The translations under genes and the position numbers were made by a program. A DNA stretch of 64,000 bases from Alphaproteobacteria bacterium (GTDB lineage Bacteria; Pseudomonadota; Alphaproteobacteria; Rickettsiales; UBA8987). Of this stretch, positions 31,604-43,539 are shown in pieces. Position 1 is the stretch's first letter, and every line of letters starts with the position of its first letter. Location of the stretch: the NCBI GenBank assembly GCA_030429625.1, contig JAUIFA010000001.1, positions 97,306-161,305 on the forward strand, given 5' to 3'. The notes beneath the pieces were generated by a model that saw only the letters and a list, made by a program, of their open reading frames with translations, searched no databases and had not been told where the DNA came from.

Positions 31604-32020
31604 ATGATGCAAAGCTGTACCGTTACATTGTCGTTTTCTGCGGCTAAAAGATTGCCGGATTTTGATGGTAACTGCAAACATGTTCATGGCTATGGTCATA
31701 AAATAGAAGTAACCTTTGCTCCAAAAGGTTCGGATGGAGATTTGGTGGTTGATTTTTATAAGGTCAAGAATGTGCTGGGGCAATGGATAGACGGGCATTG
31801 GGATCACACGATTTTGTTGCATGAAAAGGATAAATCTTTAGGAAATTTAATCGCTCAACATACCGGTCAGACCCCCTTTTATTTTGATACGAGTCCTACG
31901 GCAGAAAACCTTGCTAAATTTTTATGCACACAGATCTGTCCAGAGTTATTGCCTCAGGTGATATGCATCAAAGTTAGAGTCTACGATAATCCGGAAGTGT
32001 GGGCGGAATTCTCTGTTTAA
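31604..32020 (+). CDS. queD: 6-carboxy-5,6,7,8-tetrahydropterin synthase
   Basis: 138 aa. FSAAKRLP..C..VHGYGHKIEVTF and DHTILL match the PTPS/QueD pattern. Confidence 0.75.
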   Translation: MMQSCTVTLSFSAAKRLPDFDGNCKHVHGYGHKIEVTFAPKGSDGDLVVDFYKVKNVLGQWIDGHWDHTILLHEKDKSLGNLIAQHTGQTPFYFDTSPTAENLAKFLCTQICPELLPQVICIKVRVYDNPEVWAEFSV

Positions 32021-32358
32021 TTAAAAGCAAACATATTTTGCATAATGTCACAAATTTCCTGAGCTTTTATTTGGTTTAAGGTAGTGACTTTATTAAGCAA
32101 ACGCTTTTTATCAATAGTGCGCATTTGATCCAACGCCAGCTGATATTGCCCGTATTCAATGTTGATAGGCACTCGAAACGGCGCAGCACGGCCAATGTGA
32201 CGTACCGGAGCAACCGTGACGGTTTTAAGCTGATTGTTTAGCTCATTGGGGGAAATGACAACGCACGGTTCAGGGCGGCGAATCTCGGTTGAATCCAGAG
32301 AAGTAACCGACACCATAAATACATCAAAACGCTCAATGGGGATAGACATATTACACAT
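32017..32358 (-). CDS. MazF/PemK-family toxin
   Basis: 113 aa. FDVFMV..EIRRPEPCVVISP..TVTVAPV and DQMRTIDKKRL fit the PemK-like pattern. The alternative ATG at 32349 overlaps the antitoxin stop. Confidence 0.75.
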   Translation of the reverse strand: MCNMSIPIERFDVFMVSVTSLDSTEIRRPEPCVVISPNELNNQLKTVTVAPVRHIGRAAPFRVPINIEYGQYQLALDQMRTIDKKRLLNKVTTLNQIKAQEICDIMQNMFAFN

Positions 32359-32587
32359 CCTCCTCGTTATTGATATCGTCAGGAATATGCAGCTGTTCTT
32401 TTTGGGTTAGCATCAGTTGCTTGGCAGCCTCCTCCCAGTTTCTTCGGGTCTGAGTGACCGGGGTGATAACCAAAGATTTGCCTTTAACCTTCATCTCAAC
32501 CATGTCAGATATTCCGCACTCTTTAAGTACTTTAGATGGAATCCGAACACCTTTTGAGTTGCCGATGGCGATGACTTTTGCTTTCAT
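32351..32587 (-). CDS. AbrB/MazE/SpoVT-family antitoxin
   Basis: 78 aa. MKAKVIAIGNSKGVRIPSKVLKECGI is a swapped-hairpin AbrB-type N-terminus and the tail is acidic. The gene lies immediately upstream of the toxin. Confidence 0.7.
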   Translation of the reverse strand: MKAKVIAIGNSKGVRIPSKVLKECGISDMVEMKVKGKSLVITPVTQTRRNWEEAAKQLMLTQKEQLHIPDDINNEEDV

Positions 32588-35029: not shown

Positions 35030-36290
35030 ATGCTATTACTTTATCCAGAGGCACATCCTGTTTTTCTCCGGTTTTACGATTCTTTAATTCAACATTTCCC
35101 TGTTCAAGCGAGCGCGGGCCAACGGCAATTTGCCAAGGTGTGCCGATTAAATCCTGCGTGGCGAATTTACTGCCTGCCGATTCTTTACGATCGTCGTAGA
35201 GTGTCTCAATTCCAGCTTCACAGAGATGGGCATACAAAGCTTCACAGGCTTTGTCGCACGCCTCATGTCCGGATTTCACATTGATAATCGCCGCTTGGAA
35301 AGGTGCTACCGACTCCGGCCATATGATGCCGTTCTCATCGTGACTGGCTTCAATAATTGCCCCAACAAGGCGGGAAACGCCAATACCGTAACAACCCATT
35401 TTCACGGTAGTGCTCTTGCCGTCTGCACCCATCACTTCGGCCTTCATGGCGGCGGAATATTTGTCGCCCAGATAAAAGATATGCCCGACTTCAATCCCAC
35501 GGGCGGATTTTACGTCGCTAGGAGCTTGGGCGGGATCGTGCATTTCATCGGCCGCCGAATACAGAGAGCGTAGGGTAGGGATGTCCAGCTCGTCTGTGTC
35601 CACCAGTTCTTCAAATTTTGGATCGTAGAATATCTCACTTTCTCCGGTATTGGCGATGACCTGAAATTCATGGCTCATATCGCCGCCAATGGCACCGGTG
35701 TCCGCCTTAAACGGGATAGCTTTTAAGCCCAAACGCTTAAATATTTTAAAATAAGCGCGATACATAGTGTCGTAGGACTCTTTGGCAGATTTTTCATCAA
35801 TATCAAAGCTGTAAGCGTCTTTCATCAAGAACTCACGTCCACGCATCACGCCAAAACGCGGGCGGATTTCATCACGGAATTTCCACTGGATGTGGTAGAG
35901 ATTTAGCGGTAGTTCTTTGTAACTACGTACGTTATTGCGGAAAATATCGGTGATCACTTCCTCATTTGTCGGGCCATAAATAAGCTGATTGTTGTGTCGA
36001 TCGGTGACAATCAACGTCTCCTTGCCGTAATCGCCACGTCCGGACTCCGCCCACAACGAAGCTGGTTGCATGGTGGGCATCAGTAATTCCACTGCACCCG
36101 CCTTGTTCATCTCTTCACGCACGATATTTTCTACCTTCTTTAATACGTTTAGCCCCAATGGCAGCCAGTTATAGATGCCGCTGGAAAGCTGACGAATCAT
36201 CCCCGCACGCAGCATTAGCTGATGGGAAATGATGGTGGCCTCGGAAGGGGTTTCCTTTAAAACCGGTAAAAGATAGTGTGATAGTCGCAT
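35019..36290 (-). CDS. proS: Prolyl-tRNA synthetase (short form without INS editing domain)
   Basis: 423 aa. Contains [18 protein letters not shown] and the class II motifs [25 protein letters not shown] and [10 protein letters not shown]. Confidence 0.93.
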
Positions 36291-36366
36291 ATTATTCCTT
36301 GTGATATAATCATCTTAGCAATATATAGGTTGCTTACAAATCTAATGAAACGGCAACGATAATACA

Positions 36367-36789
36367 ATGCAAATAATTGAATGTAAAACGAAAGAACAGA
36401 TAAAAGAGACTTATAAAGTCGCCAGTCAGCATTATAATCTCGGTGAAGCCGAATATATGGCAAATATGGAAGAGATGATGCAGGCAGGGGATTATCGTTG
36501 CATTGCTGCGGTAAATGACCAAGGTGAATATCTTTCTATATTAGGATTTCGGGTGGGCAGACGTCTTTATTGTGGCAAGTTCTTCCATCTGGATAATTTG
36601 ATTGTCGGCAAAGATCATCGTCGCGAAGGTCTGGCCGAAAAGATGGTAGATTGGGCGCGCGATGAAGCCAGAAGGTTGGGGTGTAACTCGATCCTTGCCG
36701 ATACGTATGTGGAAAATTATCCCGCGCATAAGCTCTTTATGAAAGAGGGTCTACACATCCGTGGCTATCACATGCGCGAGATTCTTTAA
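36367..36789 (+). CDS. GNAT-family N-acetyltransferase
   Basis: 140 aa. LIVGKDHRREGLAEKMVDWARDEARRLGC is a motif A-like Q/RxxGxG/A region. Confidence 0.7.
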   Translation: MQIIECKTKEQIKETYKVASQHYNLGEAEYMANMEEMMQAGDYRCIAAVNDQGEYLSILGFRVGRRLYCGKFFHLDNLIVGKDHRREGLAEKMVDWARDEARRLGCNSILADTYVENYPAHKLFMKEGLHIRGYHMREIL

Positions 36790-36810
36790 GTCGTGCCTTT
36801 GTCGGGCAGG

Positions 36811-37542
36811 CTAAAAACCAGCAGGAATATCAGGCTTAAAGGGAATTGAAGGTAATTCAATAGCTGGGGCGATTTCTTTAAAGAAATCATCATTCATATT
36901 CTCAAATAAATATTCTAAATCCTTATCCCGCTTATACTGATACTTCCCATTGTCAAAGTCCATTAGTTCCGTAACCATTGCTTTCCAATCGTGGTTTAAA
37001 ACAGTATTAAAGAATCGAGGGGTCGACCTATCCCAATTGAGACTGTACTGGAGAGCAACAGAGGCAACGATTGTTTGAATGTGTGGTGACAGGTCTCCGA
37101 ACTGTTTTGCGCCCTTAGGAATGTTTGCATTGTAAATATTTTCTATGGTTTCTCCAAGATATTTAAAAAACAACTTATCTATAAGATTATATTCTGATTT
37201 TGTTAATGTAAGCGGTTCAATATAACTATATATTTGGGCCAATTGTCCTTTTTTACCTAAATAGGGCTTCAGCTTTTCTTTAATGTCTTCGGGAATGCCC
37301 ATTTTATCAAGACTGCTCTCATTATATTTACCCAAATCAAATAGATCAGCTATTACCACACCCGCATCCACGGTTAGGTTTCCAGTATAGTTATAGATAG
37401 TTACGCCCGCATACTGTCCTCTGGCTTTAATGTGTAACAATTGACTGCTTTTATCATCGGAAATGGTTTGGGCGTTAATGCTACTACTAATCAAAAAAAC
37501 CAGCAGGAATAGCAGGCTTGGAAGGGATATGTGCAATTTCAT
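36811..37542 (-). CDS. Secreted pesticin-C-terminal-like (T4-lysozyme-fold) muramidase homolog, possibly non-canonical
   Basis: Signal peptide MKLHISLPSLLFLLVFLISSSINA. GVVIADLFDLG, LKPYLGKKG, FGDLSPHIQTIVASVALQYS, TPRFF, DWKAMVTEL and KRDKDLEYL match my recollection of the pesticin-like muramidase family. There is no Glu between the signal peptide and the G-V-x-I-A motif. Confidence 0.55.
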   Translation of the reverse strand: MKLHISLPSLLFLLVFLISSSINAQTISDDKSSQLLHIKARGQYAGVTIYNYTGNLTVDAGVVIADLFDLGKYNESSLDKMGIPEDIKEKLKPYLGKKGQLAQIYSYIEPLTLTKSEYNLIDKLFFKYLGETIENIYNANIPKGAKQFGDLSPHIQTIVASVALQYSLNWDRSTPRFFNTVLNHDWKAMVTELMDFDNGKYQYKRDKDLEYLFENMNDDFFKEIAPAIELPSIPFKPDIPAGF

Positions 37543-37544
37543 TT

Positions 37545-37583
37545 TATAAATATTGTTTGTCCCTGAAGATTAGGGTAATTATT
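37545..37583. repeat. Anchor repeat, degenerate copy 1 (34/39 identical to copy 2)
   Basis: tataaatattgtttGtcccTgaAGattAgggtaattatt. It lies between the muramidase-like gene ATG (37542) and the ATG at 37588. Confidence 0.75.
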
Positions 37584-37587
37584 TTTC

Positions 37588-38073
37588 ATGCGTACAAAAG
37601 ATTTTATAAAATCATTATCATATAGTAAAATAGTATTTTTATTACTCTTTACGGCTCCTGCTGTTGCATCGGCATTTATAATACAAGAACAATTGGATGA
37701 TTCAGATTTAAACGAACGCATAATACCGTTGCTTATGCTTATTTCCTATCTATTCTTTATAATCTCAATGCTAAATTATTTTATATACAGGAAAAGCGGG
37801 AGAATATCGGCTGTTGTGCCAGTTATAATAAACTTTATTGCGATAGGCAGCTTTGGAATTATGCTCAACATGCCCGCTGTTTTCATTATTCCATTCTTAT
37901 TTGTTGCTGGAGTGTGGGAGATTTTTGAGAAGAAATTTTTAGTTGCTGCGGTTTATATTTTGTTGTTCCTTGCAACCATAACCCCTTTTGTATTTGTATG
38001 GCAGACTGGACTTGAAATGGAGAAACGTTCTGAGGGGATGAAAGACCAAGTTCAAGACCAATCAGAACACTAA
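37588..38073 (+). CDS. Multi-pass membrane protein, immunity-like candidate (paralogous N-terminus with 38288..38923)
   Basis: 161 aa with about five hydrophobic segments. MRTKDFIKSLSYSKIVFLLLF parallels MKIKDCIKSLTFSEIILYLLL in the neighbour. Degenerate anchor copy 1 lies directly upstream. Confidence 0.5.
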   Translation: MRTKDFIKSLSYSKIVFLLLFTAPAVASAFIIQEQLDDSDLNERIIPLLMLISYLFFIISMLNYFIYRKSGRISAVVPVIINFIAIGSFGIMLNMPAVFIIPFLFVAGVWEIFEKKFLVAAVYILLFLATITPFVFVWQTGLEMEKRSEGMKDQVQDQSEH

Positions 38074-38278
38074 TTGCATCGTCTTTCTCACCTTTTATTT
38101 TCTTCCACATGCCCCCATTTAAAGTTTCTGATATTATACCAACAAACGCAACACCTGCATTTACAAGACTCAACCATTCATAGGTAAAACCACAGGCTAA
38201 ACCTACAAACCCATAATGTATGTTGCCCCAAATATCGGTGTTATATAAATATTGTTTATCCCCGAGTATTGGGGTAAT
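38042..38278 (-). pseudogene. Start-less orphan cassette encoding the C-terminal half of the toxin domain
   Basis: My reverse-strand translation is ITPILGDKQYLYNTDIWGNIHYGFVGLACGFTYEWLSLVNAG...KDDAISVLIGLELGL. It aligns to residues 186-~275 of the 327-aa protein. There is no in-frame ATG/GTG/TTG before 38173 and no internal stop. Confidence 0.6.
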
Positions 38279-38279
38279 T
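38243..38279. repeat. Anchor repeat copy 2 (exact 37-mer)
   Basis: atataaatattgtttatccccgagtattggggtaatt is identical to 39296-39332. It heads the orphan cassette on the minus strand and ends 8 nt before the ATG at 38288 on the plus strand. Confidence 0.9.
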
Positions 38280-38287
38280 ATTGTGTT

Positions 38288-38923
38288 ATGAAGATAAAAG
38301 ATTGTATAAAATCATTAACTTTTTCTGAGATAATTCTCTATCTGCTGTTAGCTACTATACTGCCACTATTAGAATGGAACGGAGTTTCATTTGTAAGTAT
38401 TATCGTGACAATATTGGTACTAATATACACTATCATATTTGCCCCAATATATTTTATAACATACGTGTGGAGGAAAAAGTTCAAGGCATTACTTCCTTTG
38501 TTTAAAGGAATTCTAATGCTTCTTTACATGTTGTCGGTTGTTGCCACTGTGTACCGGCACTATGAAGAGAAAGTTTTTAACGAAAAATATAATGATTATA
38601 TGGAAGTGGTAAATATATTTAAATCAGGATCATGGCCATATGAAGTGATTGAAACTACTGCCGAAGAAAAATCTAGGGGGCATTATGATAAGTATGTTTT
38701 GCCTACTAAATACCATCATCTAGCAAAACCTTACTGGGTTAATAATCCTAAAAGAAAACTGCATGTTATTGAAGGTAATATAGCGAATCCAAATAGTGAA
38801 ATAGAGTTTTCTGTTGAATCTCATTACGATGAAGCATGGGTGGTTTATACTCCTATTAAAGGGTGTGGTATATATCAACCATGCAAAAAAGACCACTGGT
38901 ACTTATTGCACACTCCTAGATAG
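38288..38923 (+). CDS. Membrane protein (3-4 TM segments plus a ~110-aa soluble C-terminal domain), immunity-like candidate
   Basis: The ATG at 38288 gives MKIKDCIKSL. The ORF-track TTG start at 38252 lies inside the 37-nt anchor. The 3' end overlaps the convergent toxin gene by 21 nt. Confidence 0.5.
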   Translation: MKIKDCIKSLTFSEIILYLLLATILPLLEWNGVSFVSIIVTILVLIYTIIFAPIYFITYVWRKKFKALLPLFKGILMLLYMLSVVATVYRHYEEKVFNEKYNDYMEVVNIFKSGSWPYEVIETTAEEKSRGHYDKYVLPTKYHHLAKPYWVNNPKRKLHVIEGNIANPNSEIEFSVESHYDEAWVVYTPIKGCGIYQPCKKDHWYLLHTPR

Positions 38924-39886
38924 CAATTTTGCGATATTTGAACTTTTGACCTTTAAGTTTTGAGGGCGTAATTTTACAGACCCAGCACTCCATAATGCTC
39001 TGGTGGTGTATATCGCTATATGTAATGCTTGCTTTGATAGTGAATTGCTATTTTGCTCCCATAGACCAATTCCTGCTAATACACTAATTTCATCATCTTT
39101 TGCAGCAATGGCATGCCCTTTCACTTTACCAAATATATTGCCAAAATCTATCTCTCCCTTATAAAGATCTGCAGCTATGCCAATACCTGAACTAACAATC
39201 TCTACCGCAGTATTACCTAGAAGTAAGAATTCTTTTGTAAACCCACAAGCCAGCCCAACATAACCAAAATGAATATTTGACCAAATGTCATAATAATATA
39301 AATATTGTTTATCCCCGAGTATTGGGGTAATTGGTACAAAATCTCCATTCTTTTTCCATGCAGGAATAAACAATGCTTTAAATTTATCATTCTTCTTATG
39401 ATCCCACTTGCCTCCAGACTTAACTAATTCTATAAACTTTAGATTTGCCTGTGTAAAATAAGATAGAGACTCTGCTTCTAACAGTGCTCGTCTTTTATAA
39501 TCAATCTCACCTATAGATTTTATTATCAAATTGTCAGATTGAGCATTCAATTCCCTTATTTCCTGTGCTTCGGGGCCATTAGCATTTTTGTTCATTTCTG
39601 CGGTCATAAAATTTAGGACACGATCGTATGCGTCGTAATTAAACAGATATTCGTGTTTTAACTCTTCATTTTCATTCACGGTTTTTGCCTGATTATTAGA
39701 TAGGCGTTCTTTTCTTATGGGGTTAAGAAAATCGGCAAAAAGATTGCGATTGCCTTCAAGCGATGCCTGTTTTTTCTCAGGCGTGATCTCAGGGAAAAGA
39801 TGCGCCACTTGTTCGAAAGCAAAGGCAAGAGATTCTTGCGCCAGCCCGATTGTTATGGGTCTAATGATTTCATTTGGTTTTGGCAT
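38903..39886 (-). CDS. Polymorphic-toxin-like protein: unknown N-terminal ~160 aa plus a C-terminal Ntox44-like (polymorphic toxin type 44) domain
   Basis: 327 aa. GGKWDHKKN...DIWSNIHFGYVGLACGF...AKDDEISVLAGIGLW resembles my recollection of the type-44 toxin pattern (WDxK, NIH[FY]G[FY]VG, DD). No signal peptide is present. The ATG lies 2 nt after the tail-tube gene stop. Confidence 0.5.
   Translation of the reverse strand: MPKPNEIIRPITIGLAQESLAFAFEQVAHLFPEITPEKKQASLEGNRNLFADFLNPIRKERLSNNQAKTVNENEELKHEYLFNYDAYDRVLNFMTAEMNKNANGPEAQEIRELNAQSDNLIIKSIGEIDYKRRALLEAESLSYFTQANLKFIELVKSGGKWDHKKNDKFKALFIPAWKKNGDFVPITPILGDKQYLYYYDIWSNIHFGYVGLACGFTKEFLLLGNTAVEIVSSGIGIAADLYKGEIDFGNIFGKVKGHAIAAKDDEISVLAGIGLWEQNSNSLSKQALHIAIYTTRALWSAGSVKLRPQNLKVKSSNIAKLLSRSVQ
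39296..39332. repeat. Anchor repeat copy 3 (exact 37-mer) inside the 327-aa toxin-like gene
   Basis: On the minus strand it encodes ITPILGDKQYLY, residues 186-197 of the 327-aa protein. Confidence 0.9.
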
Positions 39887-39888
39887 GA

Positions 39889-40302
39889 TTATGCCTCCGT
39901 GTAGAGGATTTCGCCGCTACTTTCGAGAGAAATACTGTAGCTTTCAGCATTCTTAATGGCGCCGGAGCGATTATAATCCATCACCTTAAATGTACCAGAG
40001 AGCACGTCACCGCTACCAAAGTGAATCTCAAAACTTGTCAATTTATTGGTGAATGCGGCAATACGTAATTGGTTTTCAGTCGTTGATCCCATATACCTGC
40101 CGCTGGCATCAATGGTGATAGAGCGTTGTCCCTCATTATCAATGATATCACGCCATTGACCAGACAAAATGTTAGTTGAATCAATTATTTTTGTACTAAA
40201 ACTAAAATCCATGTTTAGTAATCCGCCGACCAGAGAGAAACTCTCCGGATCGCCACCATCGCCAATATGTAATGTTACCTCAGAACCTTTTTGTGCCGCC
40301 AT
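39889..40302 (-). CDS. Phage/GTA major tail (tube) protein homolog, TP901-1 family, solitary
   Basis: 137 aa. The pattern MAAQKGSEV...GGL...WRDII...ASGRYMG...F...G.F.V..Y...G...AESYSISLESSG and the length match my recollection of the RcGTA g9-type tube protein. Confidence 0.65.
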   Translation of the reverse strand: MAAQKGSEVTLHIGDGGDPESFSLVGGLLNMDFSFSTKIIDSTNILSGQWRDIIDNEGQRSITIDASGRYMGSTTENQLRIAAFTNKLTSFEIHFGSGDVLSGTFKVMDYNRSGAIKNAESYSISLESSGEILYTEA

Positions 40303-40365
40303 GCTGCCCTCCGTTGTTTTTTCTCAGGCAGGATAGGGTCAAATGTGAAAAGGCGGAAGGGGGCT

Positions 40366-40992
40366 TTAGGCAGATAAAGCCTGCGCGATCTTCTCAGCGG
40401 TGATGCTGCCCTGGCGCAGAATGTTGGGGGTGGCGGTGGTGCAATCCACCACGGTGGACGAAATGCCAATATCACACTGCCCGCCATCTATGATTATAGC
40501 AACCGGTTTTTGCAGGGTTAAAGCGGCTGAGGTAGCATCAATACAAGGCTGTTCATCCGAAATGTTTGCACTGCTTATGGCAATAGGTCTGCCAAATTCG
40601 GCAAGAAAATCCGAGATGATCGGATGGTCAGCCACCCTTATGCCGATAGTATCGCGGCCGCAGAAAATAGGCTCGCATAATCCGGCGTCATCTCTGCGCT
40701 CGATGATGATGGTCAGCGCCCCCGGCCAAAAAGCATGTGCCAGCTTCAGCGCGTTATTGTTAAATATACCGAGCTGCTGTGCTTGAGTAAGGTCCTTTGT
40801 CATAATCTGCAGAGGTTTGGTATCAGGCCGTTTTTTGGCGTTGAACAGTGACTTTACAGCCGCTTCATTCGTCGGGTCGGCCGCAATGCCATAAACGGTT
40901 TCGGTGGGCAGAATAACCAACTGTGCATCTTTTAATAAAGCTGCGGCCTTGGCTCGCACGCGATCAGAGTATGTGACGATTAGGTTTTCCAT
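40366..40992 (-). CDS. tsaC: L-threonylcarbamoyladenylate synthase (YrdC/TsaC type)
   Basis: 208 aa. Contains VILPTETVYGIAADP, KKRPDTKPL and SSANISDEQP. Confidence 0.85.
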   Translation of the reverse strand: MENLIVTYSDRVRAKAAALLKDAQLVILPTETVYGIAADPTNEAAVKSLFNAKKRPDTKPLQIMTKDLTQAQQLGIFNNNALKLAHAFWPGALTIIIERRDDAGLCEPIFCGRDTIGIRVADHPIISDFLAEFGRPIAISSANISDEQPCIDATSAALTLQKPVAIIIDGGQCDIGISSTVVDCTTATPNILRQGSITAEKIAQALSA

Positions 40993-41047
40993 AAGGGGGA
41001 TATATAGTCTTATGGGGCAAAAAGTATAGAAAAAATTAATGATCGCC

Positions 41048-41076
41048 CTTGATAGTACATAATATTCTGCCTATAT
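41048..41076 (+). promoter_or_regulatory. Putative sigma-32 (RpoH) heat-shock promoter of lon
   Basis: CTTG (41048-41051), an 18-nt spacer, then CCTATAT (41070-41076). This fits the alphaproteobacterial heat-shock consensus CTTG-N17/18-CYTATNT and ends 27 nt before the lon ATG. Confidence 0.45.
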
Positions 41077-41103
41077 TAAACATATCATCAGCTGGAGAGG
41101 TCT

Positions 41104-43539
41104 ATGGCAGAAACGGGAGACAAAAAATCAAAGGTAACGTGTGATGCGGAGTTATACCCTGTCTTACCACTTCGAGATATTGTGGTTTTCCCAGGAATGA
41201 TTGTGCCGCTTTTTGTAGGCCGGGATCGTTCTATTAGCGCTTTAGAAGACAGCGTTAAGAATAATAGCAAACTTGTTTTGGTCACTCAGAAAGACGCGGT
41301 GCAGGACTCTCCGTCCTCAGAAGATATATACCGTGTTGGGGTGTTGGCCAATGTGTTGCAGATGCTCCGCCTTCCTGACGGAACGGTCAAAGTTCTTGTT
41401 GAAGGGAGTGGCAGGGTAGAGATTAATTGCTTTATTGAGGCCGAAAAATATCTGGAGGCGGATATTACCCAGATAGAAGAAAATGCCAATGATGAACAAT
41501 CGGTTGAGGCGCTTGTGCGGTCGACGGTTTCCTCTTTTTCTCAATACGTAAAGCTAAACAAAAAAGTACCACCAGAAATTTTTGAAAGTGTTAAACAGAT
41601 TGAAGACCCTTCCCAGTTGGTGGATACAATTGCGTCGCACATCACATTAAAAATTACAGAGAAGCAGGACATTCTTGAAACCAGTGAGCTGGATACGCGT
41701 CTGGAAAAAGTCTATTCTTATATGGAAAGGGAAGCCAGCGTACTTTCAACGGAAAAGAAAATCCGCTCTCGTGTGCGCAATCAGATGGAAAAAACCCAGA
41801 AAGAATATTATCTCAACGAACAAATGCGCGCCATTCAGAAAGAGCTTGGCGACAATGAAGAAGCGGTTGATGAGCTGGCAGAAATCAAAAAAAATATTGA
41901 GACCGTAAAATTATCTAAAGAGGCAAAAGAAAAAGCCCTTTCTGAGCTTAAAAAACTTAGATCAATGGGGCCTATGTCAGCCGAAGCGACAGTGGTGCGT
42001 AATTACCTTGATTGGGTTTTGACCATTCCTTGGAAGAAACGCTCTAAGGTAAATCTTGATTTAGACAATGCCCAAAAGATCTTGGATCGTGACCATGCGG
42101 GTCTTGAAAAGGTCAAAGAGCGTATCATTGAATATCTTGCGGTACAAAAACGTACCAAGTCTACCAAGAGTCAGATATTGTGTTTGGTAGGCCCCCCGGG
42201 TGTGGGTAAGACTTCTCTGGCCAAATCCATCGCGCAGGCAACAGGCAGAAACTTTGTCCGTCTCTCGCTTGGTGGGGTGCGGGATGAGTCCGAAATCCGT
42301 GGGCATCGTCGGACCTATATAGGCTCTATGCCGGGTAAGATTGTTCAATCAATGAAAAAGGCCAAAACGTCTAACCCGCTTTTCCTTCTGGATGAGGTAG
42401 AAAAGATGGGGCAGGACTTTAGAGGAGATCCCGCCGCTGCGTTGCTGGAAGTGTTAGATCCCGAACAAAATAATAGTTTTAACGATCATTATCTGGAAGT
42501 GGATTATGACCTTTCGGATGTGATGTTTATCACCACGGCCAACACGTTAAACATGCCGCGCCCTCTGCTTGATAGGATGGAAATCATCCGTATTTCTGGT
42601 TATACTGAGTTAGAAAAAATCAACATTGCTAAAAAACATCTTATCCCAAAACAGATTAAAGAGCATGGTTTGAAAAAAGGGGAATGGTCTATTACTGATC
42701 CGGCACTTAAAAAACTTATTGCCTGTTACACGCGCGAATCAGGGGTGCGTAATTTGGAGCGTGAACTTTCAAAATTAACCCGTAAAGCGGTCACAGAAAT
42801 TGTAAGAAAGAATGTTAAATCAGTAAAAGTCACGCCAAGCAATTTAAAAAAATATGCGGGGATTGAACGCTTTGAACATAATGTAGCGGAGAAAGATGAC
42901 CATATTGGTGTGACTACCGGTCTGGCCTATACGGAAGTGGGTGGCGATTTATTGCCCATTGAAGCAGTGTTGATCCCTGGTGGTAAAGGGCGCATTACCT
43001 TGACAGGCAAACTCGGTGATGTGATGCAGGAGTCGGCACAGGCGGCATGGAGTTACATTCGTTCTCGCTCGCATGACTTTGGTATCCGTACCGAAAAATA
43101 CCTTAACAACGACATTCACCTTCACGTGCCGGAAGGCGCAACACCAAAAGACGGGCCTTCTGCAGGTGCGGCAATGTGTGTGACTATCGTTTCCGCTTTG
43201 GTTGGTATTCCAGTACGCAAAGACATTGCTATGACCGGTGAGATCTCTCTGCGTGGTATGGTCATGCCCATTGGGGGTTTAAAGGAAAAACTGCTCGCGG
43301 CCTTAAGGGGGGACATCAAAACAGTGTTGATTCCTGAAAAGAACATTAAAGATCTGGAAGAAATTCCCGATGTGGTGAAAAAGGGATTGGACATTGTCTC
43401 GGTATCTTCAGTGGACGAAGTACTGGCACATGCGTTGACCAAAAAGCTTGAACCATTAAGTTGGGAGGAGAGTCAAAAAGATCTTTCCTCTATTGCCCGG
43501 GTGACAGAAGAGGGTGATAAAGATGTGGTTACGCATTAA
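41104..43539 (+). CDS. lon: ATP-dependent Lon protease
   Basis: 811 aa. Walker A is GPPGVGKTS. The catalytic Ser context is PKDGPSAGAAM and KEKLLAALRG is also present. Confidence 0.97.
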   Translation: MAETGDKKSKVTCDAELYPVLPLRDIVVFPGMIVPLFVGRDRSISALEDSVKNNSKLVLVTQKDAVQDSPSSEDIYRVGVLANVLQMLRLPDGTVKVLVEGSGRVEINCFIEAEKYLEADITQIEENANDEQSVEALVRSTVSSFSQYVKLNKKVPPEIFESVKQIEDPSQLVDTIASHITLKITEKQDILETSELDTRLEKVYSYMEREASVLSTEKKIRSRVRNQMEKTQKEYYLNEQMRAIQKELGDNEEAVDELAEIKKNIETVKLSKEAKEKALSELKKLRSMGPMSAEATVVRNYLDWVLTIPWKKRSKVNLDLDNAQKILDRDHAGLEKVKERIIEYLAVQKRTKSTKSQILCLVGPPGVGKTSLAKSIAQATGRNFVRLSLGGVRDESEIRGHRRTYIGSMPGKIVQSMKKAKTSNPLFLLDEVEKMGQDFRGDPAAALLEVLDPEQNNSFNDHYLEVDYDLSDVMFITTANTLNMPRPLLDRMEIIRISGYTELEKINIAKKHLIPKQIKEHGLKKGEWSITDPALKKLIACYTRESGVRNLERELSKLTRKAVTEIVRKNVKSVKVTPSNLKKYAGIERFEHNVAEKDDHIGVTTGLAYTEVGGDLLPIEAVLIPGGKGRITLTGKLGDVMQESAQAAWSYIRSRSHDFGIRTEKYLNNDIHLHVPEGATPKDGPSAGAAMCVTIVSALVGIPVRKDIAMTGEISLRGMVMPIGGLKEKLLAALRGDIKTVLIPEKNIKDLEEIPDVVKKGLDIVSVSSVDEVLAHALTKKLEPLSWEESQKDLSSIARVTEEGDKDVVTH

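Follow-up and report, generated by a model that had tools for sequence, protein, structure and literature searches.

Two plus-strand membrane genes of an alphaproteobacterial genome probably provide cognate immunity to an Ntox44-family toxin, one gene for each of two variants of its C-terminus, as judged from their sequences and surroundings. They lie in the window, which is the whole stretch of 64,000 nucleotides that was analyzed, on a small, horizontally acquired island carrying the toxin and a spare toxin-end cassette. The minus strand holds the 327-aa toxin, a silent C-terminal cassette, and a 42-nt anchor remnant, while the two multi-pass membrane genes are encoded on the plus strand (Table 1). 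Each membrane gene begins right after a copy of the anchor, and its 3' end overlaps a toxin cassette in both pairs. The open reading frames (ORFs) and their strands had been described in a first-pass annotation as membrane genes opposite to toxin cassettes and tail to tail with them, which was borne out by the ORF coordinates. The 21-nt overlap it gave for the toxin and the larger membrane gene is exact. For the 161-aa gene it had placed the overlap with the orphan homology at about 32 nt; since the homology of that cassette to the toxins extends as far as its stop codon at 37886, the antisense overlap is in fact 188 nt.

Table 1. Features of the toxin and membrane gene locus, in positions of the window
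Feature	Position	Strand	Basis
Pesticin-like (T4-lysozyme-like) protein, 243 aa, signal peptide	36811..37542	-	Pfam Pesticin 1.5e-25; hydropathy
Anchor copy 3, dead toxin-coding remnant (ITLIFRDKQYL, then stop); promoter-like TTGTTT-17-TAATTA-6-ATG of the 161-aa gene	37542..37583	.	
Type C membrane protein, putative immunity, 161 aa, ~5 transmembrane (TM) segments predicted	37588..38073	+	hydropathy
Silent (orphan) toxin C-terminal cassette, type C, without own start codon	37886..38281	-	Pfam Ntox44 6.3e-9, 36.6 bits
Antisense overlap of orphan cassette and 161-aa gene, 188 nt	37886..38073	.	ORF coordinates and alignment
Anchor copy 2, orphan cassette start (-) / promoter-like TTGTTT-17-TAATTA-7-ATG of the type B gene (+)	38241..38282	.	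repeat, spacing
Type B membrane protein, putative immunity, 211 aa from ATG 38288	38288..38923	+	hydropathy, homologues, coding substitution pattern
Tail-to-tail overlap of toxin and type B membrane gene, 21 nt	38903..38923	.	ORF coordinates
Full-length Ntox44-family toxin, 327 aa, type B C-terminal half	38903..39886	-	Pfam PF15607 1.2e-16, residues 150-276
Anchor copy 1, inside toxin gene, codons 186-197 = ITPILGDKQYLY, conserved Ntox44 core	39294..39335	.	repeat family
Phage tail tube protein homologue, 137 aa	39889..40302	-	Pfam Phage_tail_2 1.8e-21; PHROG 1407 (major tail protein) 3.8e-17

The strongest support comes from two metagenome loci (L001 and L010) that show the same design. The comparative set thus consists of three loci, of which L001 and L010 share one metagenome sample and may be related strains. 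Three types of membrane protein occur in them, and in 8 of 8 gene and tail pairs each type stands beside the same type of toxin tail. Type A combines a small membrane gene with the tail ...DWDEGVTKFKLNQLKLVK (twice in L001 and once in L010). Type B combines the 211-aa protein and the proteins P0002 and P0013 with the tail ...LWSAGSVKLRPQNLKVKSS (the full toxin of the window and remnants in L001 and L010), and type C the 161-aa protein and a 119-aa protein of L010 with the tail ...TKYKP..LKI (the orphan of the window and a cassette of L010). As judged from these sequences, such perfect type-to-type linkage is the signature of cognate immunity. Wherever both gene ends are intact, they overlap tail to tail in every type, by 12 nt in type A, 21 nt in type B, and ~63 and 188 nt in type C. 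In orphan modules the membrane genes are intact, while the toxin parts have decayed to remnants of 30-40 codons. The immunity-like reading already proposed for the membrane genes gains support from this linkage in three loci and from their coding substitution pattern. Protein-pattern scans, two of genome contigs and one of metagenome contigs, returned no further loci. The degenerate DNA pattern DKxYLYxxDIWxNIH returned only L009, which is from the same organism as L001, and L007 and L008, which differ in architecture; in viral contigs it returned nothing.

A reading of the membrane genes as spurious ORFs was ruled out by shuffling and by the distribution of mismatches over codon positions. No ATG-ORF of 161 codons appeared in 2000 shuffles of the region (maximum 141), and mismatches followed the order 3 > 1 > 2, with values at positions 1/2/3 of, for example, 0.37/0.24/0.53 for type B and 0.39/0.23/0.42 for type A. 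Searches of Pfam, NCBIfam, PHROGs, and PADLOC gave no family match for any of the membrane proteins, and for homology to known colicin immunity families Pfam and NCBIfam yielded only noise at E <= 0.1. TM segments were counted from Kyte-Doolittle windows.

The type B ORF is open from a TTG at 38252, which lies inside the anchor and gives the 223-aa length first assigned to it. The gene most likely starts at ATG 38288 instead and encodes 211 aa; this ATG was chosen because it is homologous to the start of the 161-aa gene and fits the promoter spacing. The database protein for this gene is a 135-aa truncation. By hydropathy, the 211-aa protein has three predicted TM segments followed by a soluble C-terminal domain of ~120 aa with a conserved C-x5-C, and this domain is predicted to be periplasmic. 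The number of TM segments is odd in both type B architectures, with three in the window and one hydrophobic stretch in P0002 and P0013, and the C-x5-C is conserved. Only two relatives of the 211-aa protein were found among 5.8 billion and 1.8 billion proteins; P0002 and P0013 are 47-59% identical to it over the soluble domain. The helices of a single-sequence AF2 model agree with the TM segments, and the model was not used for a fold search because its pLDDT is below 50 over the soluble domain. No homology was found between this domain and the neighbors of canonical Ntox44 toxins.

A homologue search with the 161-aa protein returned only the protein itself. Its one relative is the 119-aa protein of L010, with a weak match of 27% identity over 74 aa (E 2e-4 in an 11-sequence database). 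An hhalign comparison of type A and type C membrane proteins for common origin reached a probability of 31%.

The toxin belongs to the Ntox44 family with 61.4 bits against a gathering cut-off of 24, and shares the motifs WDHK and YxYDIWSNIHYGYVG with the canonical domain. Alignments and repeats identified a conserved N-terminal part, a variable C-terminal part, and a silent cassette sharing the anchor, and the alignment places the variable part within the catalytic domain itself, as its C-terminal half. The nucleotide repeat between toxin and orphan cassette spans 142 nt at 73% identity. The alignment of the cassette with the toxins continues to its stop and includes the common residues W299, G302, K305, L311, and K312, and its tail TKYKPQQLKI resembles the tail TKYKPKSLKI of the L010 cassette. 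The toxin has no signal peptide. No N-terminal trafficking domain (PAAR, LXG, Rhs, TPS etc.) was recognized, as Pfam gave Ntox44 only and NCBIfam and PHROGs nothing. A structure model (pLDDT 60.5, pTM 0.60) had no Foldseek match in the PDB at E <= 0.001, and a sequence search of the PDB returned nothing.

Immediately upstream of the toxin, and translationally coupled to it, lies the phage tail tube homologue, a possible carrier of the toxin; the same gene pair is present in L001. The pesticin-like gene sits at the low-GC end of the island. The locus is chromosomal and not on a colicin plasmid. No Rfam family was found in positions 36000-41200, no terminator between the convergent genes, and no SOS box or lysis gene at the locus.

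The common anchor and the near-identical opening of the two membrane genes, noted before, form one junction repeat consisting of the anchor and the 5' ends of the genes, in which 37542-37632 and 38241-38332 are identical at 71 of 92 positions. Between copy 1 in the toxin and copy 2 in the orphan, the 12 anchor codons show 0 synonymous differences, while 10 of the next 15 conserved codons differ. This comparison supports a constraint on the anchor at the level of DNA; alternatively, the perfect 37-mer could have been left behind by a recent recombination. Copy 3 no longer functions as coding sequence, yet it survives exactly in front of the 161-aa gene.

All six membrane genes of L001 and L010, which represent three types, are preceded by TTGCAA-17-TATCAT-6-ATG with diverging spacers, a motif that looks like a promoter for leaderless mRNA. 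The anchor of the window shares this spacing of -35, 17 nt, -10, 6 nt, and ATG (7 nt at copy 2). The shared upstream element described earlier as a leader is present, but in appearance it is closer to a promoter than to a transcribed leader. The proposed "coupled design", in which a 37-mer is coding on one strand and a leader on the other, is supported by the synonymous conservation and by the match to the promoter spacing of L001 and L010. The hexamers TTGTTT and TAATTA of the window are weak and were missed by a sigma-70 scan, which found 14 promoter-like sites in the region against 14.1 expected and hence no enrichment. A Shine-Dalgarno GGAGG occurs in the toxin gene, 7 nt before its ATG, and in the tube gene, and none occurs in the membrane genes. 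The spacer of copy 2 holds a hairpin (CCCCGA...TTGGGG). Anchor hairpins are predicted at -6 to -9 kcal/mol, and copy 3 bears a compensatory-looking C>T and G>A pair. The hairpin was set aside as a terminator or structural signal, as Gly and Pro codons already account for its CC...GG pairing and only three copies exist.

In the explanation we propose, the module would consist of the C-terminal half of the toxin domain and the convergent membrane-protein gene. Since their 3' ends overlap, recombination could not part toxin specificity from its antidote. Each immunity gene would be under its own promoter and transcribed into a leaderless mRNA, as suggested by a spacing of 6-7 nt between -10 element and ATG and by the lack of a Shine-Dalgarno sequence. 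Expression of immunity would therefore be independent of the toxin, also in silent and orphan modules. In the window, this promoter would be embedded in the 37-42-nt anchor, whose opposite strand codes for the motif that is best conserved in the toxin (ITPILGDKQYLY) and which would also provide the homology for cassette exchange. Through recombination between anchors, the type B module would be lost and the N-terminal part of the toxin joined to the type C cassette, for which the protecting immunity gene would already be in place. The immunity proteins would reside in the inner membrane, with the cysteine-pair domain of type B in the periplasm, neutralizing the toxin there or at the membrane.

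The further reading that the 37-42-nt anchor is at once toxin core motif, crossover site, and opposite-strand promoter of a leaderless mRNA is held tentatively; together with its corollaries, it is more doubtful than probable. It would amount to a compact dual-strand coding economy, one short element serving as protein motif, recombination site, and promoter, and every recombination installing a new toxin end would bring or preserve the promoter of the adjacent antidote. One corollary would be that the Ntox44 toxins of this clade are neutralized outside the cytoplasm, which would question an RNase-only view of the family, and another that the co-translated tail tube protein may aid delivery in an Hcp-like carrier role. 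Should the immunity domain indeed be periplasmic, this would be relevant to the question of what Ntox44 toxins attack.

The membrane proteins could also provide immunity against a cytoplasmic RNase by blocking its passage through the inner membrane, occupying or mimicking a translocation partner, and not by neutralizing it in the periplasm. Ntox44 is annotated as a predicted RNase, the Ntox44 effector TseR has been reported as cation-dependent RNase, and the type A and type C proteins are nearly all membrane-embedded, without a sizeable soluble domain. We nevertheless regard this reading as unlikely, given that the specificity of type B lies in a soluble domain predicted outside the cytoplasm, that variation in the toxin falls in the C-terminal half of its catalytic domain, which fits direct binding better, and that the likely partners of canonical Ntox44 toxins are exported proteins.

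It is quite improbable that the plus-strand genes are unrelated passengers, or serve mainly in antisense or convergent-transcription control of the toxin with their proteins being secondary. Antisense overlap is certain if both strands are transcribed, as the genes overlap by 21 and 188 nt without a terminator between them, and the 161-aa protein is nearly without relatives; but a coding signature at the protein level, a conserved soluble domain, and linkage to toxin type in three loci speak for the proteins themselves. Orphan modules keep intact membrane genes while toxin parts decay, the opposite of what a pure antisense role predicts. A function as holin-like release factors, which together with the exported pesticin-like muramidase would free a toxin lacking a signal peptide (cf. 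type 10 secretion and colicin lysis genes), is very improbable. Release factors would have no reason to co-vary with the C-terminal type of the toxin or to form arrays with tail remnants, and type B differs from holins in its 120-aa soluble domain. While the proteins are small and multi-pass, the lysozyme-like gene adjoins the array, and the toxin is without a recognized trafficking domain, no holin family was matched in Pfam or PHROGs, membrane genes and muramidase lie on opposite strands, and L001 and L010 contain no lysozyme gene within the available DNA. Cognate immunity thus remains our preferred reading of both genes.

Among known systems, the same toxin domain occurs in the canonical Ntox44 loci, namely the T6SS PAAR-Ntox44 loci of Enterobacter and Klebsiella, the VgrG-linked loci of Treponema, and TseR of Yersinia pseudotuberculosis. 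The gene following the Ntox44 toxin in Enterobacter, Klebsiella, Treponema, and L003 has a product that bears a signal peptide, a TM anchor, or a lipobox. The canonical loci differ from the locus studied here in that the neighbor is co-directional, singly anchored, and unrelated in sequence, delivery is by T6SS, and no cassette array is seen. TseR is a reported RNase (review PMC13577199), and with such an activity one would rather expect the target to be cytoplasmic and the immunity protein to be soluble and cytoplasmic as well.

The polymorphic toxins of the Rhs, CdiA, and MafB kind (Zhang et al. 2012, PMC3482391) resemble the locus in their conserved N-terminal and variable C-terminal parts, in silent downstream cassettes that begin at a conserved anchor, in an immunity gene linked to each cassette, and in orphan immunity arrays with toxin remnants. 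Unlike in these systems, the immunity genes of the locus are convergent, overlapping, and multi-pass membrane genes, not co-directional ones. Half of one catalytic domain is exchanged and not the whole, no trafficking domain is recognized, and the toxin has only 327 aa. Gene-neighborhood screens for polymorphic toxin immunity require genes on the same strand, and no immunity family is listed for Ntox44 (Methods of PMC3482391 and its lists, respectively). The locus shows that such screens can miss candidate immunity genes and that automatic annotation can mis-call them, as in the truncated database protein. The contrast with canonical polymorphic toxin loci drawn in the first-pass annotation stands in so far as immunity genes are co-directional there. 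It does not hold further, as opposite-strand membrane immunity is textbook knowledge for colicins and the likely partners of canonical Ntox44 toxins are not soluble cytoplasmic proteins.

In layout, the locus comes closest to the opposite-strand membrane immunity known from the pore-forming colicins and from colicins M and Z, and such immunity has so far been treated as a peculiarity of colicins. In the pore-forming colicins (A, B, E1, Ia, Ib) and colicins M and Z, as at the locus, the immunity gene directly follows the toxin gene but is encoded on the other strand. The immunity protein of colicin M consists of a TM anchor and a periplasmic domain. Opposite polarity is typical for immunity genes of colicins acting on the membrane or peptidoglycan; these genes have their own promoter and an inner-membrane product, which has four TM segments in colicin Z, and the site of toxin action is the membrane or the periplasm (PMC6668396, PMC4436062). 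At the locus, an opposite-strand gene downstream of the toxin encodes an integral membrane protein (3 and ~5 TM segments predicted) behind a putative promoter of its own, a motif conserved in L001 and L010 with the same spacing in the window. The predicted periplasmic immunity domains indirectly suggest that this toxin, like those colicins, may have its site of action at the membrane or in the periplasm, while the RNase report for TseR points the other way. Unlike the colicins, the locus is chromosomal, has no SOS box or lysis gene and no sequence relationship to them, and couples an Ntox44-family toxin to a phage tail tube gene. Its genes overlap tail to tail, the putative promoter is merged with the anchor, and the cassette array includes silent toxin ends and orphan immunity genes. 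The colicin-like layout is known in itself, and here it most likely stands within an array of swappable cassettes.

The genes discussed here lie in a low-GC island at 36.8-40.3 kb of the window, where the GC profile gives 0.32-0.37, compared with 0.42-0.52 for the flanking DNA. On one side the island is bordered by a GNAT acetyltransferase gene (Pfam), beyond which comes an ORF that, by eye, we take to be proS. The ORFs flanking the other side were read by eye as presumably a Sua5/YrdC-type gene and lon. The remaining larger ORFs of the window also look by eye like housekeeping genes. The first-pass annotation described the ORFs and strands of the island correctly, including the 21-nt overlap of the toxin gene with the larger membrane ORF, which is exact, and the similar opening of both membrane genes (MKIKDCIKSL... 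and MRTKDFIKSL... in the larger and smaller protein, respectively). Two of its values were revised. The larger membrane protein, given as 223 aa, is better called at 211 aa because ATG 38288 corresponds to the start codon of the 161-aa gene. The orphan cassette, a silent toxin C-terminal piece, overlaps the 161-aa gene by 188 nt rather than about 32 nt, since its homology to the toxins runs down to its own stop (alignment A1, toxins and orphan cassette).

Features of the island, and genes directly downstream of canonical (T6SS- or VgrG-linked) Ntox44 toxins in other loci
Feature	Position	Strand	Basis
Phage tail tube homologue	39889-40302	-	Pfam Phage_tail_2, 1.8e-21
327-aa protein with Ntox44 toxin domain	38903-39886	-	Pfam Ntox44, 1.2e-16
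223/211-aa hydrophobic multi-pass membrane ORF, type B	38252/38288-38923	+	hydropathy
Orphan cassette, open frame without start codon, type C	37886-38281	-	Pfam Ntox44, 6.3e-9
161-aa hydrophobic multi-pass membrane ORF, type C	37588-38073	+	hydropathy
Pesticin-like lysozyme with signal peptide	36811-37542	-	Pfam, hydropathy
Anchor copy 1 (42 nt)	39294-39335		
Anchor copy 2 (42 nt)	38241-38282		
Anchor copy 3 (42 nt)	37542-37583		
Gene downstream of toxin, L011	3708-4175		
Gene downstream of toxin, L014	3160-3630		
Gene downstream of toxin, L013	3672-4124		
Gene downstream of toxin, L003	3818-4075		

The Ntox44 domain of the toxin spans residues ~90-290 in an alignment with eight other Ntox44 proteins, with the motifs EMNxNA, WDHK, YxYDIWSNIHYGYVGLACGF, and DDxxDxxAIxxGxxL, and the anchor, which encodes ITPILGDKQYLY within the toxin, sits mid-domain in the same alignment. 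Exchange of a separate toxin domain was ruled out, as the Ntox44 domain extends across both sides of the anchor; the cassette is thus predicted to exchange the C-terminal half of one catalytic domain. Past the anchor, toxin and orphan cassette are homologous over 142 nt at 73% identity, W299, G302, K305, L311, and K312 are common to toxins and orphan cassette (A1), and the orphan tail GTTKYKPQQLKISS reappears as GITKYKPKSLKIAN in the independent metagenome locus L010. The first ~85 residues of the toxin are missing from other Ntox44 proteins. A structure model of the toxin was all-alpha, with moderate confidence only, and had no structural neighbour in the PDB.

The toxin gene begins 3 nt past the tail tube stop (39884-40302), and its GGAGG lies within the end of the tube gene. 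The same tube/toxin pair occurs in metagenome contig L001 (1425-3191) with a Tail_completion_gp17 gene before it, and no other tail gene adjoins the pair. The tube protein may act as a carrier in the manner of Hcp; alternatively, the two genes may be left over from the tail module of a gene-transfer agent or prophage.

Searches for related loci recovered very few. Protein-pattern scans of 185,579 genomes and JGI metagenomes returned nothing, and the family is very rare. Only two relatives of the 211-aa protein were found, P0002 and P0013, through which contigs L001 and L010 were reached, and none of the 161-aa protein was visible to search tools. One strand of L001 (3.9 kb) encodes tail completion and tail tube proteins and a 310-aa Ntox44 toxin that is 47% identical to that of the window, with the N-terminal 113 residues largely conserved. 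Three membrane genes lie on the opposite strand: a type A gene (108 aa) overlapping the toxin 3' end by 12 nt, the type B gene of P0002, after which comes a 27-codon remnant AFWSIGSVKLRPKNLKVKSSNTAKLLS that is nearly the same as the window toxin's end, ALWSAGSVKLRPQNLKVKSSNIAKLLS, and a second type A gene with a remnant of the type A tail behind it. L010 (1.6 kb) is an array of membrane-gene/toxin-tail units, consisting of a type A gene end plus a remnant of the type A tail, a gene for a 119-aa membrane protein with an internally deleted cassette (anchor fused to a TKYKP..LKI tail), the type B gene of P0013 with a type B tail remnant FWSVGSAKLQPKNLRIKG, and the start of a further type A gene. 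For the 161-aa protein, this 119-aa product is the one relative that could be detected (27% identity across 74 residues in a collinear alignment; E 2e-4 in a database of 11 sequences), and by frame comparison both genes abut a TKYKP tail with matching relative reading frames.

Across the window, L001, and L010, the eight membrane-gene/toxin-tail pairs sort into three types with no mismatch, and the tail-to-tail overlap is present in every type that has both ends intact. The observation is real and conserved. The immunity-like role proposed in the first-pass annotation is supported by this linkage, and cognate immunity is the best-supported reading of the membrane genes, well backed by comparative evidence from very few loci. 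A module would pair the C-terminal half of a toxin domain with a membrane immunity gene that runs convergently to it, overlaps it, and has its own promoter. In orphan modules the immunity genes are intact and the toxin parts are decaying, as would be expected if immunity to neighbours' toxins were useful in itself.

Chance occurrence of the membrane ORFs was ruled out by 2000 shuffles of the region, none of which contained an ATG-ORF of at least 161 codons (maximum 141). Mismatches between homologues follow a coding pattern (codon position 3 > 1 > 2), with fractions at positions 1, 2, and 3 of 0.37, 0.24, and 0.53 for type B and 0.39, 0.23, and 0.42 for type A, respectively. A purely antisense or passenger role of the plus-strand genes is unlikely given this protein-level conservation, although antisense overlap is unavoidable if both strands are transcribed, since there is no terminator between the genes. 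Holin-like release factors working with the pesticin-like muramidase are likewise an unlikely alternative; neither co-variation with toxin type nor accumulation beside toxin-tail remnants would be expected of release factors, and no holin family was matched in PHROGs.

The 211-aa protein is predicted from hydropathy and the positive-inside rule to have a cytoplasmic N-terminus, three TM segments, with a strongly basic loop YVWRKKFKALLPLFKG joining TM2 and TM3, and a C-terminal domain of ~120 aa outside. In P0002 and P0013 this domain follows a single hydrophobic stretch and is likewise predicted outside, and a C-x5-C pair is kept in all three. The database protein of the 211-aa gene, P0001, is a 135-aa annotation truncation starting at internal Met77, and it lacks the shared N-terminus along with two of its three TM segments. 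Canonical Ntox44 partners start with a signal peptide, anchor, or lipobox (MKKKIVLGCIVLFSGLLVLIAH in Enterobacter, MKIKKILITFSILVFFSLIV in Treponema, ...LLSGCS in L003). Because the type B domain is predicted outside and canonical partners are exported or anchored, neutralisation is predicted to take place on the periplasmic side of the inner membrane. Such a site is in tension with the cytoplasmic RNase action reported for Ntox44 effectors, with which the exported or anchored canonical partners are also hard to square: the effector TseR is reported as an RNase (review PMC13577199), and database descriptions call the domain a predicted RNase. It is also possible, mainly for types A and C, that the immunity proteins block import, keeping a toxin with RNase activity from passing through the inner membrane.

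After anchor copies 2 and 3 come the membrane-ORF start codons and similar first codons, forming a junction repeat with 71/92 identical positions. Every base of the 12 anchor codons is identical between toxin and orphan, and of the 20 codons that follow, 15 keep their amino acid, 10 of these with a synonymous difference. The perfect 37-mer may have been recently homogenised by recombination, constrained as DNA, or both, and each would fit a recombination anchor doubling as promoter. Copy 3 no longer encodes toxin (ITLIFRDKQYL, then a stop, with no cassette behind) and is nonetheless retained exactly in front of the 161-aa gene. Copy 1, in the live toxin with no membrane gene after it, departs from copies 2 and 3 exactly at the -10 end (TAATTG vs TAATTA). 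The survival of copy 3 and the divergence of copy 1 would tie the anchor to the membrane genes. The anchor also contains a 6-bp hairpin of -6 to -9 kcal/mol (37561-37575, 38260-38274, and 39313-39327); among these only three copies, non-coding copy 3 has C>T and G>A changes that preserve the pairing and destroy Pro and Gly codons.

All six membrane genes of L001 and L010 are preceded by TTGCAA-17-TATCAT-6-ATG, with the -35 once TTGTAA and once TTGCAC and the -10 also TATTAT or TATTGT; the hexamers are retained and the spacers have diverged. This motif resembles a near-consensus sigma-70-type promoter, whose predicted transcription start at or adjacent to the start codon would therefore give a leaderless mRNA. 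The window has TTGTTT-17-TAATTA-6/7-ATG, with the same spacing and weaker hexamers, and its -35 element and spacer fall within the anchor. A generic promoter scan did not flag the anchor site, and promoter-like sites were not enriched. No Shine-Dalgarno sequence precedes the membrane genes; toxin and tube genes have GGAGG 7 nt before their starts. The anchor, first annotated as a shared 5' leader, lies directly 5' of both genes, but its placement is more promoter-like than leader-like and would imply leaderless mRNA. Separately, at L001 30-60 the first type A gene's start has a 9-nt duplication (ATGAACCT/ATGAACTT), so that the ATG closest to the -10 opens a 3-codon frame and the real start is 9 nt further.

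Different immunity types within one locus have their first 15-25 codons in common (MxxKDxIKSL in the window, MxFFxKxxKxxxW(L/M)FA in L001/L010), and the N-terminal membrane segments of the type B domain differ between loci. Such mosaicism points to the immunity gene's promoter and 5' end as the module's other recombination boundary.

The pesticin-like protein is T4-lysozyme-like with a Sec-type signal peptide, and its start coincides exactly with the end of anchor copy 3. A direct repeat of 34 nt (36813-36846 / 37495-37528, 85% identical) covers its last codons and signal-peptide codons. Possible roles are those of a second toxin, a release enzyme, or a cell-wall enzyme. At 32017-32587 (-), a pair of small ORFs that overlap (78 and 113 aa) resembles by eye a putative AbrB/MazE-type antitoxin and PemK/MazF-type toxin. 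A different protein with an Ntox44-like N-terminal half (AKWDHK..., GDKKYLYDHDIWSNIHFGYAG) occurs in L008 (1137-3654) and L007 (5813-7084); it also contains a LysM domain, and its C-terminus is like phage SPP1 gp7 / Mu F. The L008 gene has three ORFs for multi-pass membrane proteins (96, 157, and 191 aa) in divergent orientation upstream and a lysozyme-like ORF after it.

The convergent layout is not shared by more distant Ntox44 loci, where the next gene is co-directional (L003, L004, and L005, and plasmids of Enterobacter, Klebsiella, Treponema, and Sinorhizobium). The contrast drawn earlier with canonical co-directional, usually soluble immunity holds for orientation, but canonical Ntox44 partners are exported or anchored and not plain soluble. 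Zhang et al. (2012; PMC3482391) give no Ntox44 immunity family, and the neighbourhood method used there took only same-strand genes as operons, which may be why the convergent layout went unnoticed. The layout works like that of the immunity genes of pore-forming colicins and colicins M and Z, but there is no sequence match to those families, the genetic context differs, and the system is not a member of them. Its toxin domain, anchor, orphan cassette, and linked immunity make it a polymorphic toxin locus, and it differs from the usual ones in having no recognised trafficking domain and an immunity gene that is not co-directional. What seems new is the combination of a cassette array, an obligatory toxin/immunity 3' overlap, and a promoter merged with a coding recombination anchor.
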